DNA of 64,000 nt from a virus. Lineage: Duplodnaviria > Caudoviricetes. The notes beneath the pieces are model-generated. The model had not been told where the DNA came from. It saw only the letters and a list, made by a program, of their open reading frames with translations, and made no database searches. Numbering within the stretch: position 1 is the first letter of the stretch; each line of letters opens with the position of its first letter. Both the position numbers and the translations under genes were made by a program. Shown here piece by piece: positions 31,491 to 54,731 of this stretch. The DNA lies in the IMG/VR virus record IMGVR_UViG_3300031992_000040, positions 32,001-96,000 of that record; one strand, written 5' to 3'.

Positions 31491-32294
31491 ATGAAAAAAA
31501 GAATTTTCTTTTGTAGCGACATACACGGCAATTTCGATGCCCTGATTGAAGGGCTCGAAAAAGCCGGATATAAAGAAGATGACAAAAATAATTTACTTGT
31601 TGTTTTGGGAGACCTTTTTGATAGAGGAACAGATTCCTTGAGAGTTTATCAATATTTAAAAAGGTTATCAGATGAAAATAAAGCCATTATTACTATGGGA
31701 AATCATGAGGGATTTTTAATAAGATATTTAGATGGAACATCAATTTCTCCATTTAATTATTTAAGAAATGGAACAGATGAAACATTGGCTGATTTTTTGG
31801 GAAGAACAAAACCTTTTGAAAGTTGGTGTTTTATCGATAAAGAATTAGAATATCCTACAGACGAAAGTTTTGCTGAATGGATTTCTATTGCCAAAGATGA
31901 TATAAACAAAGAATATCCAGAATTATTATCTTGGTTAAAATCATTACCTAGATATTTTGAAAGTAAAAACTATATTGGTGTTCACGGAGCAATAGACACA
32001 AGGGCAGAAGATTGGCACAACCCTCATTGTATATTGTCGGGCTATGTCGATTGGGATGCTCTTGACTTTGATGATGGAACATTTTTTGGTAAAAATATCA
32101 ATAACACAGATAAAACTGTAGTAATTGGACACTTTGGAACCAGACATCTAAGAGAAATATATGGAATCTCAGATGGAAAAGAAGATAATGATATATTGAT
32201 TAGAGAGGATGGTAGAATTGTTGCTTTGGATGCAACAACAATATTAACTAACAAGATTAATGTTTTTGTTGTCGAAGACGAATTATTAGAATAA
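31491..32294 (+). CDS. Calcineurin-like metallophosphoesterase (NinI-like)
   Basis: DIHG, GDLFDRG, GNHE, VHG, GH motifs. Confidence 0.9.
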   Translation: MKKRIFFCSDIHGNFDALIEGLEKAGYKEDDKNNLLVVLGDLFDRGTDSLRVYQYLKRLSDENKAIITMGNHEGFLIRYLDGTSISPFNYLRNGTDETLADFLGRTKPFESWCFIDKELEYPTDESFAEWISIAKDDINKEYPELLSWLKSLPRYFESKNYIGVHGAIDTRAEDWHNPHCILSGYVDWDALDFDDGTFFGKNINNTDKTVVIGHFGTRHLREIYGISDGKEDNDILIREDGRIVALDATTILTNKINVFVVEDELLE

Positions 32295-46678: not shown

Positions 46679-47909
46679 TTCACTTCACTTTCTACTTTAT
46701 TCGCTAGCTTTAAAATTATATATTGGCTTTATTATTTTTTCTACTTCAACTGTATCTTTTATACGTTCTAATATTTCTTGCATTGGTTTATATACCATAG
46801 GTGCTTCATCTATTGTTTCCTCATTTACTGATGTTGTATATATACCGTCCATTGATTTTTTGTAATCATCAATATTTAATGTTTGCCTTGCTATGTTTCT
46901 TGACATTGTTCTACCAGCTCCGTGTGGTGCAGAATAATTCCAATCTTCATTGCCTTTACCAATGCCTATAATACATCCATCTCTCATATTCATAGGTATA
47001 ATAACTTTTTCACCTTTTCTTGCTGATATTGAACCTTTTCTAACAATGTTATCTTCAAAATTTATATAATTATGAATACATTGGAAATAATCTTCACTTA
47101 ATATACTCATCTCTTTACAAATTTTATAAGCAATATAACTTCTATTTAATAATGCAAACTCTTGACATAGTTTCATATCGTGCAAATAATCTTCTCTATC
47201 TTTTCCTTCTAAATAACATAAATCTTTTGGCAATTTAGTTTTTCCATTATATTTAGCATTAATTTCTGTTAATACTTTTTGTATTTCCTTTTCTCTGCCT
47301 TGTTCTTTATATTCTTTAATTACTTTTTGCTTTTCATCGTTCATTTCTTTTTTGTATGAACAATATTCTATCGCTTTATTTTGATATATTTCGGCAACTT
47401 GTTTTCCTAAATTTCTCGAACCCGTATGAATAACTAAATATTTGTTATTTTCATCATCAACATCAATTTCAATAAAATGATTACCACCACCTAGTGAGCC
47501 TAATGACTTTTCTAACCAACCATCTTTATTTTTTAATTCTTTATAACAATATAATTGAGTAAAGTCATAATCTTTAACTTTTTTTTCATGAACATTCATT
47601 CCACTTGGTATATATTTTCTAATAATCTTATCTAATTTCTCTAAATCTAATTCTATATTTCCTAAATTGACACATAACATACCACAACCAATATCAACAC
47701 CCACTATGTTTGGTATTACTTTATCACCTAAATTGCCAGTAAAACCTATTACGCAACCTGCTCCTGCATGAACATCTGGCATTATTCTAATTTTACAATC
47801 TTTAAATGCTTCTTGTTCTAATAATAAATCAATTTGTTCTTTTGCGCTTTGTTCTATATTGTTTGTAAATATTTTTAAGTCTTTCATAATCAATTCACTT
47901 TACTTTCTA
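46676..47909. repeat. 19-bp direct repeats flanking rtcB (46676-46694 and 47891-47909)
   Basis: CAATTCACTT(C/T)ACTTTCTA, one mismatch. Confidence 0.7.
46697..47893 (-). CDS. rtcB: RtcB RNA ligase (3'-P or 2',3'-cP to 5'-OH)
   Basis: MPDVHAG.G..IG, VGVDIGCG, LGGGNHFIE, HTGSR, HNY, HGAGR, DEAP..YK. Confidence 0.95.
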   Translation of the reverse strand: MIMKDLKIFTNNIEQSAKEQIDLLLEQEAFKDCKIRIMPDVHAGAGCVIGFTGNLGDKVIPNIVGVDIGCGMLCVNLGNIELDLEKLDKIIRKYIPSGMNVHEKKVKDYDFTQLYCYKELKNKDGWLEKSLGSLGGGNHFIEIDVDDENNKYLVIHTGSRNLGKQVAEIYQNKAIEYCSYKKEMNDEKQKVIKEYKEQGREKEIQKVLTEINAKYNGKTKLPKDLCYLEGKDREDYLHDMKLCQEFALLNRSYIAYKICKEMSILSEDYFQCIHNYINFEDNIVRKGSISARKGEKVIIPMNMRDGCIIGIGKGNEDWNYSAPHGAGRTMSRNIARQTLNIDDYKKSMDGIYTTSVNEETIDEAPMVYKPMQEILERIKDTVEVEKIIKPIYNFKASE

Positions 47910-48040: not shown

Positions 48041-48922
48041 TTATTTTTTTATTATTTGAAACATTTCTGTTATTGATTTTTTTAATGGATAACCTTCTTT
48101 TACCAAAGAACTTTTGTGAAAAGTTTTATTTACTGCGTCTATATAAAAACTCGTTTCTCCATCATTGCCCTGATAAATAGTCTTCCATTGTTCTTCTGTA
48201 AATATATGTTGTGGCTCTAATTGTTCAATAGCCAAATTATCCAATGAAATCAATTTAAACTTTTTTATATATTTATCAAGATTATTCTTTAACCATTCAA
48301 TTTTACCGTCAACATCTTTGTCTTGTTCTCTGTATTTTATTCCTCTTTCTAAGTTTTTATACCCGAGTATAAGTATTTTACAGTTAAATTGTGAAAGATA
48401 GTCAAATACATCTTTACCGTGAACTCCTGCAATTAAATGTATTATTGCATTATCATTTTCTGCTACATTTTTCCATAGCAAATCAAACCTTGCTTTATAT
48501 GAAACACCCAATCCTTTTATTAAATCCTCATCAATAAGTTCGTTAATAAGCATAACTTTCTCTACAAATTCTGGTTGACTTACAGTCATATTTGCTATTA
48601 TACCTTTTTCTTTCAATTTTCGTAAAAATGGTTTTAAATCTGGGTGAGTAGTGACAGAGCCACCACCAATAGCACACTCTTCTCCTGCAATCATAGTGTC
48701 AATAAAATCTAGGTTCATAATATCTGCGTGCTTACCTTCTTGTGTGCAACCAGCATAACAATATGGACAACCGACTTCACAATATTTAGTTATACAAAGG
48801 TCTATACTTAAAGGATATTCTAAATTTAGTTTCTCGTGGTCTGGATAATCCACAATTCTTGTTCCATCATCAAAAATGGATACTTCTGCATTTCCATTTT
48901 TATATTTATTAAGCAACTTCAT
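48041..48922 (-). CDS. Radical SAM protein
   Basis: CEVGCPYC (CxxxCxxC), AIGGG...HP. Confidence 0.88.
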   Translation of the reverse strand: MKLLNKYKNGNAEVSIFDDGTRIVDYPDHEKLNLEYPLSIDLCITKYCEVGCPYCYAGCTQEGKHADIMNLDFIDTMIAGEECAIGGGSVTTHPDLKPFLRKLKEKGIIANMTVSQPEFVEKVMLINELIDEDLIKGLGVSYKARFDLLWKNVAENDNAIIHLIAGVHGKDVFDYLSQFNCKILILGYKNLERGIKYREQDKDVDGKIEWLKNNLDKYIKKFKLISLDNLAIEQLEPQHIFTEEQWKTIYQGNDGETSFYIDAVNKTFHKSSLVKEGYPLKKSITEMFQIIKK

Positions 48923-49121
48923 TATTTTCCCCCAACTTTCTTAATATATCTAACTTTTTTGCAACTTCCTCATAAGATTTTCCCATACAAATAGGAATAT
49001 ATCCATTAAAACATTTCTTTTTATATAAATCTTCGTTTATTTTTATTGCTTCTTCTAATGTTATTATATTATAAGCGTCTTGCTCTGGACTATATTCTCC
49101 TAAATAATACATATTAATCAC
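48909..49121 (-). CDS. Hypothetical protein
   Basis: Coupled ORF. Confidence 0.5.
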   Translation of the reverse strand: MINMYYLGEYSPEQDAYNIITLEEAIKINEDLYKKKCFNGYIPICMGKSYEEVAKKLDILRKLGENNEVA

Positions 49122-49522
49122 CTCTCTTTAAATATTTTTCTATCAATCCAAAAGAAAATGATACCACCAATTAAATTGGCTATTATTGTTTCTAAAATAG
49201 TATTTGTATGCAATAAATACAATACTATAGCCAAAGTAGGTGTGCTAAGTTGCCATCTAAATAAATACAGTAGAAACTTTTTTATAGTTAATTTCCCTTT
49301 TCCAAAACTTCTTTTATTAATAAGTTCTACTAATTCTAAATTTTTATTATTTGCTCTTTCTAACTCTTTTGTTGTATCACATAAATCTTTTGCAAAAGCC
49401 TTTATTCCTTCATCTTTTATTTTTATAATATCATTTAATCTTTCAATTTCTTTCTTGTATTCTTCTATTGTTGGGTCTTGCCATCTTGTTAAAACCTCAA
49501 CTTCTTTTCCATCATCTGCCAT
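49118..49522 (-). CDS. Coiled-coil protein with C-terminal two-TM (GtrA-like) segment
   Basis: YLFRWQLSTP...IANLIGG.IFFWIDR.IF. Confidence 0.55.
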   Translation of the reverse strand: MADDGKEVEVLTRWQDPTIEEYKKEIERLNDIIKIKDEGIKAFAKDLCDTTKELERANNKNLELVELINKRSFGKGKLTIKKFLLYLFRWQLSTPTLAIVLYLLHTNTILETIIANLIGGIIFFWIDRKIFKER

Positions 49523-49854
49523 TATTCCTCCCAACCAAGTTCATCGTATTGCATTTGTATTGCTAATAATTCTTTTTTATTAAGTGGAGCACTAATTCTA
49601 CAATTATGTTTTTTAGAATACGCCCCAATCCAGACTCTTTTTGTATAAAATCTAAATTCTATATCTTGTATAAAGTCTTCGTTTTCACTACGGTATAATA
49701 TATACGGTTCATCCTGCGTTACCCAACCACCATTTTCTTTGTTATTAGAAATATTATGGCATATTTTTTTATACCCAAGTTCAGCAAATAAATCTTCTGC
49801 CATTTTATTTTCCAATAGTGTAACGCAATTTTTGTTCACATCCGTCTCCGTCAC
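49522..49854 (-). CDS. Hypothetical protein
   Basis: A..LF.ELGY ... EL.AI.....ELGW pattern; true start may be internal. Confidence 0.5.
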   Translation of the reverse strand: MTETDVNKNCVTLLENKMAEDLFAELGYKKICHNISNNKENGGWVTQDEPYILYRSENEDFIQDIEFRFYTKRVWIGAYSKKHNCRISAPLNKKELLAIQMQYDELGWEE

Positions 49855-50086
49855 AATATATATGTCCGCTCAACATATATATATTATTACCGTAGTTAAC
49901 GTGACGATGGCAATTAGGACATTCTACGGTATAATTTAACTCATCATCACTATTATTTTTATCGATTATTTTTATTGGCGGTTGAGATAAACTTGCATAT
50001 ATATATTCATCTAAGCTTCTATCTACAAAATTTTCTCCAGTTATTGTGGCATTTATCATTTTTGCCACCAAATCTATTTTATTCAT
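49805..50086 (-). CDS. Zn-ribbon hypothetical protein
   Basis: CPNC...C...C. Confidence 0.5.
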   Translation of the reverse strand: MNKIDLVAKMINATITGENFVDRSLDEYIYASLSQPPIKIIDKNNSDDELNYTVECPNCHRHVNYGNNIYMLSGHIYCDGDGCEQKLRYTIGK

Positions 50087-50087
50087 A

Positions 50088-50867
50088 TTAATTACCTTTT
50101 AAGAATACATCGTTTTCTTTTTCGTATTCTCTTAATTTATCCCAAAACTCTCCAGTTTCAAAAGTATATTCTTCCCAATATCTATCCCAATATTCATCTT
50201 TAATACAACCACGCTCATCTAACCATTCCTTTGGAGGCAATTCTCCTTTTTCGTTCATCCTATGGTCGCCTTCTTTATAGTCATATTCAAACCCTATTGT
50301 TTTAATATTATAGCCACGATATTCATCTCCACCGATAGTTATATAAGAATCTTTATTAAAAATAAATCTTTTTAAAAATTCATCGTCATTAAATACTTTA
50401 TCAAAAAAATCTTTTCTATCAGCAAATTCTCCAACGTGGTCAACAAATGGGTGAAACCAACTTCTATCTAAAAAGTCATATTCTTCACTTTTTTCTCCAT
50501 TTGTGTCGATACATTTGAAAATATCATTAGGTTTTGGGTCATTTTTATATGGTTTATATTCAACAATATTATAAACTTCATTATATATTTTATTTATTCT
50601 TTCTTTAAAAGAGTTAACCATATCTTTTGTTATTTGATATTGGTCTTTACTCCACTCATACCCTACTAATTCACGAATTGTAATATATAAATAGGCTAAT
50701 TTCTCATCCCAATCATCGACAAGCCTACTTTCTTCTCTCCCATAAGCATAATTGTGGTCTAAACTATCATTAAGATTATAATTTTCTTCATCAACTTCGT
50801 GTGGAATAACTAATGCGTGTGTAGAAGAAGAATTGGTTTCAAATGTCCCTTTTCTAATTAATTTCAT
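50088..50867 (-). CDS. FETNSSSTH-motif protein 4
   Basis: N-term MKLIRKGTFETNSSSTHAL; VDH; GGDE; ends KGN. Confidence 0.8.
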   Translation of the reverse strand: MKLIRKGTFETNSSSTHALVIPHEVDEENYNLNDSLDHNYAYGREESRLVDDWDEKLAYLYITIRELVGYEWSKDQYQITKDMVNSFKERINKIYNEVYNIVEYKPYKNDPKPNDIFKCIDTNGEKSEEYDFLDRSWFHPFVDHVGEFADRKDFFDKVFNDDEFLKRFIFNKDSYITIGGDEYRGYNIKTIGFEYDYKEGDHRMNEKGELPPKEWLDERGCIKDEYWDRYWEEYTFETGEFWDKLREYEKENDVFLKGN

Positions 50868-51227
50868 TTACCATCTATCTCCTTTATAAATACTCATAAT
50901 TATTTTATCATCAAGTTCTTTTTGTTCAACTTCTGCATAATTATTTATATATTCTGGAGAGGCATTTCCATCTTCAATTACATCATAGTAATCACTTTCC
51001 ATAAAATCATATTCGTTATCAAAATGCTCCCCATTATAATCTATAGAGCCATCTGCATTTCTTATGATTTTTTTATCGTTATCACTTAAATCTTCAACTT
51101 CTCCAGTATAAAGATTTAAAACCTTTTCATTATTTTGCCAAGCCTTATAGTCTTCTTTAGACATAATTACAAGTGCGTGTGTGCTACTACTGTTAGTTTC
51201 AAAAGTATTTCTTCTTATTAATTTCAT
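50868..51227 (-). CDS. FETNSSSTH-motif protein 3
   Basis: N-term MKLIRRNTFETNSSSTHAL after AGAGGTG RBS. Confidence 0.8.
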   Translation of the reverse strand: MKLIRRNTFETNSSSTHALVIMSKEDYKAWQNNEKVLNLYTGEVEDLSDNDKKIIRNADGSIDYNGEHFDNEYDFMESDYYDVIEDGNASPEYINNYAEVEQKELDDKIIMSIYKGDRW

Positions 51228-51237
51228 ATTGACACCT

Positions 51238-51759
51238 CTAATTTCCTTTATAATAATGATAATAGTCTGGGTTATCATCTAAATCATCTAAATCATAGCC
51301 ATCATCATTATCATTTCCAGTTCTTACATAACCATCTAAAATGGCATTAACAAATAATTCTTCATTTCCAAATATTTCATCAAGAAAATCCTTTAATTCT
51401 TCACAATGGTCTACATAACCTTGCATACTATCTAAATATCTCCATTTTAAATTTCCGTCATCATCATAACTTTCATCAAATTTAGGCTCTTCAAATTCTA
51501 TTTTTTTATAATAAGGACTTAATATATCTATGATTTTTTGTTTATATTCTTCATATTTGTCTGGATAAACGTCACATATTGCTGTCCAAATGTAATCGGT
51601 AAGAGTATGTTTCCCATATTCCCATCCGAAATCACTAATTCCAAAATGAATAGATGGACGCTTTCCATATAATGATTTATCTATTTTTCTAGGAATTGTT
51701 ATTGCGTGAGTTGAAGATGAATTTGTTTCAAAAGTTTTTAGTCTAATTATCTTTGTCAT
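51238..51759 (-). CDS. FETNSSSTH-motif protein 2
   Basis: MTKIIRLKTFETNSSSTHAI; YVDH; TGNDN; ends KGN. Confidence 0.8.
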   Translation of the reverse strand: MTKIIRLKTFETNSSSTHAITIPRKIDKSLYGKRPSIHFGISDFGWEYGKHTLTDYIWTAICDVYPDKYEEYKQKIIDILSPYYKKIEFEEPKFDESYDDDGNLKWRYLDSMQGYVDHCEELKDFLDEIFGNEELFVNAILDGYVRTGNDNDDGYDLDDLDDNPDYYHYYKGN

Positions 51760-52171
51760 TTTTATCACTCAATTCTGTATACTCTAAATATAGTTCTTTA
51801 AAACTATCATCTATTTGAGCATAATATTCGAACTTCTTTTGTTTATCAATTTCTTTAAATTTGCTTTCCATCTTTTCTTGAAGTTCCTTCATTCTCTTTT
51901 TTCTTTCAATTTCTTCTACCCAGTCTGATAAATTTATATCTTTTAAATATCTATATTCTTTTGCAGAAGAAGGAATAAAATCTTCTTGACAAAATTCTTT
52001 ATATACTTTCCCTATAAAAACTCCACATCCTATATGTTCAACTACTACAAAAGAATCTTCTTTTAATTTTTTATTAGATGCCATAATAATACTATCTCTG
52101 CTATTAATTCTTAATATCCCACTAGCATATTCTACTGTGTAATAATATATTTTATTTTTACTTTTTTTCAT
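51743..52171 (-). CDS. Hypothetical protein
   Basis: ORF within motif-protein cluster. Confidence 0.55.
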   Translation of the reverse strand: MKKSKNKIYYYTVEYASGILRINSRDSIIMASNKKLKEDSFVVVEHIGCGVFIGKVYKEFCQEDFIPSSAKEYRYLKDINLSDWVEEIERKKRMKELQEKMESKFKEIDKQKKFEYYAQIDDSFKELYLEYTELSDKNDKDN

Positions 52172-52172
52172 G

Positions 52173-52643
52173 TTAATCTCTCCCAAATTCTATATCTTTT
52201 CCGTCTTGTAATACTTCTGCGAGCAAATCTCTTTCTTCATCTACAAGGTCTTCTAAAACTTCGCTTAAACTATGGTTCCAACTTATAAGTTGATGATTTA
52301 TTACCGTTAAATCTTCAACATTTCCACTGTATTTAGGAAAAACAATTTTCTTTCCATAATTATCTGAAACATATTGCTCAATTCTTTTGAAATCCCAGTT
52401 ATTTTTTACTTGTTCAATTAAATCTTCATAATCTTCTGCATTATATTGATACCAACTTGCAATATGAGATACCAAATAAGACACTTTTTCTTCTAGTGTG
52501 GTCAAAGTTTCTTCTTCATCAAACCACCTTATCTTTATGTTGTTTCCAAAAGGAGCATAATCTTTTCCCAGTGTTCTTCCAATAGTTAAAGCGTGTGTGC
52601 TACTACTATTTGTCTCAAACACGCTATTTCTAATTTTTCTCAT
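52173..52643 (-). CDS. FETNSSSTH-motif protein 1
   Basis: MRKIRNSVFETNSSSTHAL; INHQ; ends EFGRD. Confidence 0.8.
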   Translation of the reverse strand: MRKIRNSVFETNSSSTHALTIGRTLGKDYAPFGNNIKIRWFDEEETLTTLEEKVSYLVSHIASWYQYNAEDYEDLIEQVKNNWDFKRIEQYVSDNYGKKIVFPKYSGNVEDLTVINHQLISWNHSLSEVLEDLVDEERDLLAEVLQDGKDIEFGRD

Positions 52644-53834: not shown

Positions 53835-54731
53835 TTACTCTCCTAAATCATCTTGATGAAGCATTATATTTTTAATTGCTTCCTTGTTTGAATGTGCATA
53901 AGTATTTGTTATTGCGATATTTGTATGACCAACCATATCACGAATATTACTAATTGGTGTTCCTTTATCTATCATTTTTGTAATGAAACTATGCCTAAAA
54001 GTATGTGCTGAAACCTCTCGATACCAAGAAATACCTGCTTTCCTAGCAATTTTCTTTAGATATTCATTAAATTGATGTAAACCCAAAGTTTTTCCAGTGT
54101 TCGTAATAAACAATAGGTCTGTATCTAAATTTAATTCTCTAATAATTCCTTTTCTTCTATTGTTAATAAATATATTACACAAATATTGGCAATTAGGTGT
54201 AAACCATATTGTTCTTTCTTTATTTCCTTTACCGATTATAGTAGCATAACCATTTTGAATATCTGTGCAAGTAATTTGTATCATCTCAGAAAATCTTACA
54301 CCCGTAGTAGACAATATAGACATAGCCGCTTTCATTTTTGTGTTAATAGCAATATTCATCATTTGTTGCATTTGTTCTTCTGTTAAATATTTCTTTTCTT
54401 TTTGTTGTTGTTTTGGCGGTTTAAGTTGTTGTATCTTTTTATCAATATTATAATCTTTAACAAATTCTAAATAATTAAATAATAATTTTACTGAAATTAA
54501 TTTTATTTTTCTAGTTGCTGGAGAATTATTTCTATCTGTTAACATTTGCAACCAATCTATTATTGTTTTAGATTTTGCATTAGTCAAATCTTCCATATTT
54601 TCTATATTCATTTCCTTAATAAATTCTCTACAATGTTGAGAATAAAATGTAGCACTTTTTTCACTTTTTCCCTCAACTTTTAATTCATAAATATAGAAAT
54701 CATCTATTAATTTTTCTAAATCTTTATTCAT
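53835..54731 (-). CDS. Tyrosine recombinase (XerC/D-like integrase family)
   Basis: TGVRFSE, GKGNKER, HTFRHSF, VGH.....T..Y catalytic residues. Confidence 0.92.
   Translation of the reverse strand: MNKDLEKLIDDFYIYELKVEGKSEKSATFYSQHCREFIKEMNIENMEDLTNAKSKTIIDWLQMLTDRNNSPATRKIKLISVKLLFNYLEFVKDYNIDKKIQQLKPPKQQQKEKKYLTEEQMQQMMNIAINTKMKAAMSILSTTGVRFSEMIQITCTDIQNGYATIIGKGNKERTIWFTPNCQYLCNIFINNRRKGIIRELNLDTDLLFITNTGKTLGLHQFNEYLKKIARKAGISWYREVSAHTFRHSFITKMIDKGTPISNIRDMVGHTNIAITNTYAHSNKEAIKNIMLHQDDLGE

Follow-up and report, generated by a model that had tools for sequence, protein, structure and literature searches.

We describe here a gene module in a 64,000-nt stretch of a virus genome (Duplodnaviria; Caudoviricetes), positions 32,001 to 96,000 of the IMG/VR record IMGVR_UViG_3300031992_000040; this whole stretch is referred to below as the window. 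Four minus-strand open reading frames (ORFs) in the window encode proteins that begin with the same peptide, M-x(2-3)-I-R-x3-F-E-T-N-S-S-S-T-H-A (hereafter the tag), and a gene for a radical S-adenosylmethionine (SAM) enzyme, here called rSAM, follows them in the same direction. Across phages, genes with the tag and genes of this rSAM clade almost always occur together, whichever of the two is taken as the starting point, and the tag is a portable element, as it is found on at least three families of protein bodies that share no detectable homology. An invariant terminal tag on unrelated proteins, combined with one dedicated, co-encoded and sometimes fused enzyme, is the signature of a client-maturase system, and we give an even chance to the reading that this is a phage module of that kind, in which rSAM would modify the T-N-S-S-S core of the tag in several client proteins. 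The genes and motifs concerned are the following.

52173..52643, minus strand: tagged protein of 156 aa (isoelectric point, pI, 4.7), body family A, short 'FIDTDD ... FGRD' subtype; its tag-stripped body clusters with those of the 173- and 259-aa proteins.
52590..52643, minus strand: N-terminal tag of the 156-aa protein, M1-A18 (pattern match 52591-52619, and alignments).
51238..51759, minus strand: tagged protein of 173 aa (pI 4.5), family A core subtype 'GEYGWE ... DH ... TGNDN ... YKGN', present in nearly all modules.
51703..51759, minus strand: N-terminal tag of the 173-aa protein, M1-A19, one residue longer than the other tags (pattern match 51704-51732).
50868..51227, minus strand: tagged protein of 119 aa (pI 4.35), family B, 'KEDYxKWxxGE ... 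IYKGDRW'.
51174..51227, minus strand: N-terminal tag of the 119-aa protein (pattern match 51175-51203).
50088..50867, minus strand: tagged protein of 259 aa (pI 4.7), family A long subtype 'DSLDHNYxFGRE ... VDH ... IGGDEYRGY ... FLKGN'.
50814..50867, minus strand: N-terminal tag of the 259-aa protein (pattern match 50815-50843).
48041..48922, minus strand: radical SAM enzyme of 293 aa (PF04055 and phrog_16999 matches).
48758..48781, minus strand: codons of C48-x3-C52-x2-C55, the [4Fe-4S]/SAM cluster-binding motif (invariant columns in a 27-sequence alignment).

An earlier note on this window had reported the four ORFs with their shared N-terminal motif, on which the ORF list and the pattern match agree, and a CxxxCxxC radical SAM gene in the same direction within about 1.2 kb, which lies on the same strand 1,166 nt downstream of the last tagged gene. 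It had further taken the motif proteins and the enzyme for one uncharacterised module and had proposed their co-occurrence across genomes as a check. This idea is borne out by the linkage described below, and no curated family of assigned function was matched. Starting from the tag or from proteins of the 173-aa type, 80 of 84 loci (IMG/VR and close relatives) carry a same-strand rSAM homolog (phmmer E 1e-42 to 1e-118), separated from the last tagged gene upstream of it by a median of 21.5 nt; of the four loci that lack it, two are cut off by the locus end. Conversely, one to six tag ORFs lie directly upstream of the enzyme gene in 78 of 80 IMG/VR loci that were picked via rSAM alone. Of the two exceptions, one is sequenced for no more than 182 nt upstream, and in the other a tag ORF lies downstream.

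The same association holds in cellular genome collections. The exact tag pattern occurs 140 times in 185,579 GTDB species genomes, mostly on phage-sized contigs within metagenome-assembled genomes (MAGs) of many phyla, and rSAM lies within 8 kb in 63 of the 75 confirmed loci, including loci that match the query over the first ~25 residues only. For all five rSAM-less loci that were followed up, the enzyme is encoded at another position of the record or MAG concerned. Among 30 loci whose rSAM sequences are below 70% identity, the next most conserved neighbour is found in 9; the occasional neighbours include a kinase-HD protein, an RNA ligase, a primase, a cysteine desulfurase and a dCMP deaminase. 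Each rSAM gene is accompanied by one to six tagged genes, and one 594-aa protein (P0282) is a natural fusion of tag, body and rSAM in a single chain. A second apparent fusion, at locus L198, was rejected, as it consists of two ORFs in different frames.

This linkage bears on the possibility that the tag is a sorting, packaging or processing signal, such as a capsid-targeting sequence cut by a prohead protease, with rSAM present only incidentally. In T4, internal proteins carry a capsid-targeting sequence that is cleaved by the prohead protease, and a conserved N-terminal peptide with a hydrophobic-x-Glu element on divergent, tandemly encoded phage proteins does resemble that arrangement. We nevertheless regard this explanation as very improbable: a two-way, same-strand linkage at ~20 nt to one rSAM clade, kept in phages of Firmicutes, Bacteroidota, cyanobacteria and Thermus, is not incidental, a fused form of tag and rSAM exists, and the genes sit among early/middle genes outside the structural block.

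The tag itself is under strong constraint. A degenerate DNA pattern for FETNSSSTHA matches the window four times, against 0.00 matches expected from 100 shuffles, and the whole genome record contains only these four copies. The serine codons of the tag are drawn from both the AGY and the TCN boxes and differ between copies, which indicates selection on the protein rather than on the DNA and led us to reject a DNA-level repeat or recombination site. A profile built from the four proteins retrieved 2,193 representatives of 50%-identity clusters at E <= 1e-3, and the word-index candidates formed 2,209 clusters at 90% identity; no member of either set bears a name or a Pfam domain. In 261 fetched members, E10, N12, S13, S14 and H17 are present in 261/261, R5, T11 and S15 in 260/261 each, and F9 in 259/261. 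The register is likewise kept: the glutamate is residue 10 in 221 of the 261 members and residue 11 in 36, so the tag stands at a fixed distance from Met1. One apparently internal tag (P0197) was discarded, since it resembles two neighbouring genes that are read through with a frameshift. A metagenomic protein of 173 aa (P0129) carries a body of the 156-aa subtype with a hydrophobic, signal-peptide-like N-terminus where the tag would be expected, and represents a variant without the tag or else a chimeric gene call.

When the tags were removed, 413 unique bodies from all fetched loci fell into family A (234 members), family B (147), family C (21) and about ten singletons. Family A contains the 156-, 173- and 259-aa proteins of the window and family B the 119-aa protein, while the Cys-rich family C is absent from the window. 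Profile-profile comparison of A, B and C (hhalign) gave probabilities below 1%, with no detectable homology between the bodies. The description of the four genes as paralogs in the earlier note thus stands in part: judged by their sequences, the 156-, 173- and 259-aa genes are true paralogs with homologous bodies, and the 119-aa gene shares the tag alone. The three paralogs have in common a K-A/L-x-Y helix, a near-invariant D-H and a G-x-D strand end (GNDN/GGDE), and the (V/I)(D/N)H noted earlier is present in all three. Two of them, of 173 and 259 aa, end exactly in K-G-N, as had been reported. A late G-containing acidic motif had been ascribed to all four proteins; GNDN and GGDE do align, but GRD of the 156-aa protein and KGD of the 119-aa protein are C-terminal and are not equivalents. 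Near-invariant positions of family A, in the numbering of the 173-aa protein, are Y56, D117-H118, G148, D150 and K171. All four tagged proteins are acidic (pI 4.35-4.7).

A portable tag would also suit a docking handle, which would recruit rSAM to exchangeable specificity subunits that present the real substrate (a nucleic acid, a nucleotide or a small molecule), the tag itself not being covalently changed. The linkage, the portability, the fusion and the pairing of one enzyme with many partners all fit such a role too. The commonest architecture, in which the family A gene of the 173-aa type is followed by family B and then by rSAM (42/84 loci), resembles a fixed multi-subunit set, and RNA-repair and nucleotide-related genes (kinase-HD, RNA ligase, RtcB, cysteine desulfurase, dCMP deaminase) are frequent, non-obligate neighbours. 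However, a peptide that serves for docking alone rarely has to keep eight residues, most of them small and polar, invariant through thousands of 50% clusters, as is the case for E-T-N-S-S-S-x-H; conservation of this type is typical of a reaction site, and no RNA-repair or nucleotide-related neighbour occurs in more than 9 of 30 loci. We therefore consider docking an unlikely explanation, though the strongest of the competing ones.

AlphaFold2 (AF2) models built from family alignments were confident for the 173-aa protein (pLDDT 86.6, pTM 0.82) and the 259-aa protein (pLDDT 89.2, pTM 0.86), with the exception of the N-terminus: residues 1-12 of the former fall below 50 and residues 1-10 of the latter lie at about 47. 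Order starts in both models only where S-S-S-x-H enters strand beta-1, so that the first 10-12 residues appear as an unpacked arm in the AF2 monomers. Foldseek found no match in the PDB with E below 0.5 for either model. An exhaustive VIA-align search reached at best Z 2.6 (173 aa) and Z 3.2 (259 aa), with weak ferredoxin-like or helical rows, the usual background of such searches being Z 7-8. A search of BFVD returned only one uncharacterised family member. The modelled fold is thus without a recognisable relative, which does not by itself prove that the fold is new.

Family searches led to the same picture. Among Pfam, NCBIfam, PHROGs and PDB sequences, the four tagged proteins matched only phrog_28997, a family of unknown function, which covers the 173-aa protein well (E 2.3e-11, profile positions 6-152 of 165), matches mainly the N-terminal part of the 156- and 259-aa proteins and leaves the 119-aa protein unmatched. 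Identities as Archease, HAD, Toprim, GGDEF-like or metallophosphoesterase proteins were rejected, as none has profile or fold support. None of the four proteins contains the sulfatase motif (C/S)-x-(P/A)-x-R or has a Pfam sulfatase match, and no chain of the alkaline-phosphatase superfamily appeared among the Foldseek and VIA-align rows for the 173- and 259-aa models (best Z 2.6 and 3.2).

These models bear directly on the proposal that the tagged proteins use the tag as a catalytic or metal-binding loop of their own, akin to the N-terminal DxDxT of HAD enzymes or to the P-loop-like nests that follow beta-1, and that rSAM is a pathway partner which makes or consumes a shared metabolite. In family A the tag leads directly into beta-1 and is accompanied by the near-invariant Y56, D117-H118, G148, D150 and K171, which resemble an active site. 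Yet families B and C have the identical tag without these body residues and without detectable homology to A, the first 10-12 residues are unpacked in the models, and a fixed distance from Met1 together with an invariant Arg5 is hard to explain for an internal active-site loop; matches to known phosphoesterase, HAD or Toprim families are also missing. An intrinsic loop seems to us somewhat less probable even than docking. The earlier note had left the choice between a radical SAM modification site and a shared active-site or assembly element undecided. The occurrence of the tag on at least three kinds of bodies, its fixed register and its unpacked position in the AF2 monomers favour, on sequence and model grounds, a site of recognition or modification by rSAM.

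The enzyme is a compact member of its superfamily. Its cluster motif, CEVGCPYC, spans residues 48-55, and a full-length alignment of 27 rSAM sequences below 70% identity has a mean column identity of 53%. Only C48, C52 and C55 are invariant cysteines in this alignment, which indicates that the clade has neither a SPASM nor a twitch domain. Three features are specific to the clade: an N-terminal Y-K-N-G-N...D-G-T-K-I-R hairpin region, a GGG(N) SAM motif, seen as the GGE-like AIGGG(N/S), and the C-terminal S-F-D-N-L-A and G-D-D-G. PF04055 matches the window enzyme over residues 44-116 only (23.6 bits, gathering cut-off 29.5, E 6.6e-5), and several longer homologs have PF04055 among their precomputed matches. 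The match to phrog_16999 ('Fe-S oxidoreductase'; E 1.3e-41, profile positions 8-267 of 288) gives the window enzyme the same annotation as gp128 of the Microcystis phage Ma-LMM01. Profile matches to solved structures (GDGT-MAS, QueE, SkfB, PqqE) are restricted to the cluster-binding half, with E >= 0.003. All NCBIfam matches are sub-threshold: the best is NrdG2 (TIGR02495; 18.3 bits, cut-off 131), and the SPASM families match residues 35-116 only, at 11-18 bits against cut-offs of 380-650.

In several phages the rSAM gene is interrupted at catalytic motifs, as expected of a conserved, functionally important site. Inteins or homing-endonuclease Pfam domains occur in nine of ten longer homologs (P0273-P0281 among them), and a full-length LAGLIDADG-type intein lies inside the GGG (SAM-binding) motif at L232:3629-5704. 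On a 233-kb IMG/VR contig (L027:7098-9548) the gene is split exactly at CxxxCxxC: the N-terminal part ends ...CDRGCVF and continues with an intein-like start, C-V-P-S-G, and the ORF of the C-terminal part opens with an intein-like end, ...G-I-L-V-S-N, followed by C-H-E-N-S. A zinc-finger ORF and an HNH ORF lie in other frames between the two halves. The arrangement resembles a 'fractured gene', in which a split intein is combined with a homing endonuclease encoded on its own. In a further record (L021; G002:C1:75010-77283), rSAM is located about 23 kb from the tagged gene and comes in two pieces separated by about 1.4 kb (profile positions 3-60 and 52-294), apparently interrupted near the cluster motif.

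The rSAM clade is also present in the Prevotella Lak megaphages, the Microcystis phages Ma-LMM01 and MaMV and, more distantly, the Thermus phages phiYS40 and TMA. Ma-LMM01 gp130 is a tagged family A protein with GEFG, KASYLY, MDH, TGNDND and FFYKGN; after it come the untagged gp129 and the rSAM gp128. In the transcriptome of this phage, gp130, gp129 and gp128 all belong to the middle class B5, and a predicted promoter is found only before gp130 (PMC5780444, supplementary file 4). The module is thus co-transcribed in one cultured phage, Ma-LMM01. In Thermus phage YS40_Isch, a 318-aa protein encoded upstream of rSAM (L244:3060-4013) begins with a divergent tag, M-R-K-L-K-E-L-R-L-T-S-M-T-N-S-S-S-A-S-M, from which it follows that only T-N-S-S-S is universal.

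How such a module could work may be outlined as follows. A compact rSAM with a single [4Fe-4S] cluster and no SPASM or twitch domain would recognise the tag, M-x-x-[IV]-R-x3-F-E-T-N-S-S-S-x-H, carried by several co-transcribed acidic proteins, and would initiate, through a 5'-deoxyadenosyl radical, a modification within the conserved T-N-S-S-S core that matures these proteins for a function in mid-infection. Both the binding of the tag by rSAM and its covalent change are inferred here. By analogy, candidate chemistries are the oxidation of a serine C-beta to formylglycine, as carried out by the anaerobic sulfatase-maturating enzyme (anSME), or a C-C crosslink of the Phe9-x-Thr11 type, both with a mass change of -2 Da. 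Formylglycine and the aromatic-x-Thr crosslink are the cheapest hypotheses that such analogy offers, and the missing auxiliary clusters urge caution with both. In family A, the order of strands suggests that the tag probably adjoins D-H, G-x-D and the C-terminal K-G-N, in which case the modified tag could form an active site together with them.

Several points weigh against modification of the tag. The enzyme has three invariant cysteines and is without the auxiliary clusters used by anSME and by most peptide-modifying radical SAM enzymes, and what it is presumed to modify are not peptides but folded proteins of 119-259 aa. In family A, the second half of the tag (S-S-S-x-H) leads into beta-1 and may simply belong, together with D-H and G-x-D, to a polar or metal site of the protein itself. 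The YS40 variant lacks the Phe, the Glu and the His of the tag, and a universal target would be limited to T-N-S-S-S. Finally, related gut phages and a single large metagenome project (3300045988) account for many of the loci, so that the locus counts given above overstate the number of independent events, for which the 28 rSAM clusters below 70% identity are a fairer measure.

Comparison with known radical SAM systems brings out likenesses and differences. In the system of anSME/AtsB and the sulfatases, one rSAM enzyme serves several paralogous folded clients encoded together with it, as it would in the phage module. The target, like the phage tag, is a short invariant Ser-containing motif close to the N-terminus, adjoining the first beta-strand and an Asp/His/Lys cluster. 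In contrast to anSME, which has a SPASM domain with two auxiliary clusters, the phage clade retains three invariant cysteines only; (C/S)-x-(P/A)-x-R is absent from the tag, and the phage clients match no solved fold (best Z 2.6-3.2). The phage system also differs in that the tag is held at a fixed distance from Met1 and that the module is phage-borne. The activases PflA and NrdG are, like the phage enzyme, small single-cluster proteins; they act, as the phage enzyme would, on a flexible segment of a folded protein encoded by an adjacent gene, and glycyl-radical activases are common in phages (T4 NrdG), NrdG2 being the best NCBIfam match of the phage rSAM at 18 bits. Here the differences are the score itself (18 versus 131 bits), a tag without Gly or RVxG(F/W/Y), and clients unrelated to PFL and NrdD.

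The maturases of ribosomally synthesized and post-translationally modified peptides (RiPPs), such as SkfB, SuiB, PqqE and the three-residue cyclophane formers, share with the phage module a conserved N-terminal sequence for recognition, putative in the phages, and a dedicated rSAM enzyme, and the F-x-T and H-x-x of the tag formally fit an aromatic-x-x crosslink motif. The weak profile matches of the phage rSAM to SkfB, PqqE and WgkB involve the rSAM core only. While RiPP precursors are short peptides with a leader and a variable core that a protease releases, the phage clients are whole proteins of 119-259 aa, with confident globular AF2 models for those of 173 and 259 aa. Unlike RiPP systems, moreover, the phage module has no SPASM domain, no detected RiPP recognition element and no protease or exporter gene conserved nearby, and the invariant part of the phage tag is the presumed reaction site itself, in contrast to a RiPP leader that lies upstream of a variable core. 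Literature searches on the tag and on phage-encoded radical SAM enzymes found nothing relevant; the rSAM/SPASM genes with conserved C-terminal peptides described by Kaur et al. 2020 (PMC7159879) belong to a different system. Taken together, the tag-rSAM module is probably an undescribed protein-modification system.

The setting of the module in the window is that of small early/middle genes. The source record of 108,674 bp is estimated to be 94% complete and has a GC content of about 29%. Structural genes form a plus-strand block, after which comes a block of small early/middle genes on the minus strand, which includes RtcB (46697-47893, minus strand), a tyrosine recombinase and the stretch of tagged genes and rSAM. 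The nearest relatives are phage contigs from gut or rumen, about 105-133 kb in length, of which some had been binned into MAGs of Bacilli or Clostridia, and about 100 close homologs of the 156-aa protein are found in gut phage contigs of roughly 130 kb. To the conserved A-B-rSAM core the lineage of the window adds the 156- and 259-aa subtypes. The tagged genes are closely spaced, with overlaps or gaps of at most 10 nt, and no terminator-like site was found on the minus strand between the last tagged gene and rSAM; in other modules, family B (the 119-aa type) is the usual gene immediately upstream of rSAM. The remaining ORFs of the stretch are the following.

51743..52186, minus strand: untagged ORF of 147 aa between two tagged genes, with homologs in 11/84 loci only.
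48909..50086, minus strand: four small ORFs (93, 110, 138 and 70 aa) in the same direction, filling the interval between the last tagged gene and rSAM, with homologs in at most 4/84 loci.

The 147-aa ORF, which gives weak matches to phrog_3489 and to RpbA-like families, lies outside the conserved module, as do the four small ORFs, which are lineage-specific. The 93-aa ORF (49805-50086, minus strand) has two CxxC pairs and is zinc-ribbon-like, and the 138-aa ORF (49118-49534, minus strand) has a hydrophobic C-terminal half; neither is conserved with the module. The tyrosine recombinase/integrase (53835-54731, minus strand) stands in the middle of the early-gene run of this roughly 109-kb phage and is kept in its closest relatives (7 loci). 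Genes of the RNA-repair type recur near the module, each in at most 8 of 30 loci, and are not obligate. In the window this is RtcB; at loci L016, L030, L031, L062 and L073 there are a Pnkp-like kinase-HD protein, a class-V aminotransferase/cysteine desulfurase and an RNA ligase that has a PHA02142 OB domain, and a PAPS-reductase-like protein lies near the module at L001.

In its most far-reaching form, which we put forward only tentatively, the proposal would be that rSAM installs a new post-translational modification or protein-derived cofactor in T-N-S-S-S of whole folded proteins without an auxiliary Fe-S cluster, and thereby switches on new-fold phage enzymes or effectors (family A with its D-H/G-x-D/K-G-N site, B and C) needed in mid-infection by large phages of many bacterial phyla. 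The question is open to direct testing in the cultured Microcystis phage Ma-LMM01 and in the Thermus phages phiYS40 and TMA, the host of YS40 being genetically tractable. If rSAM does modify the tag, radical SAM enzymology would gain a new reaction or cofactor, and the tag, being short and genetically encodable, would come with a modifying enzyme dedicated to it. Thousands of phage proteins now called 'hypothetical' would acquire a function, as about 2,200 clusters at 50% identity match the motif-family profile of the four proteins. The module would then represent a new class of maturation that acts on proteins rather than peptides, relies on a minimal radical SAM enzyme and has spread among the large phages of Firmicutes, Bacteroidota (Lak megaphages), cyanobacteria and Thermus.

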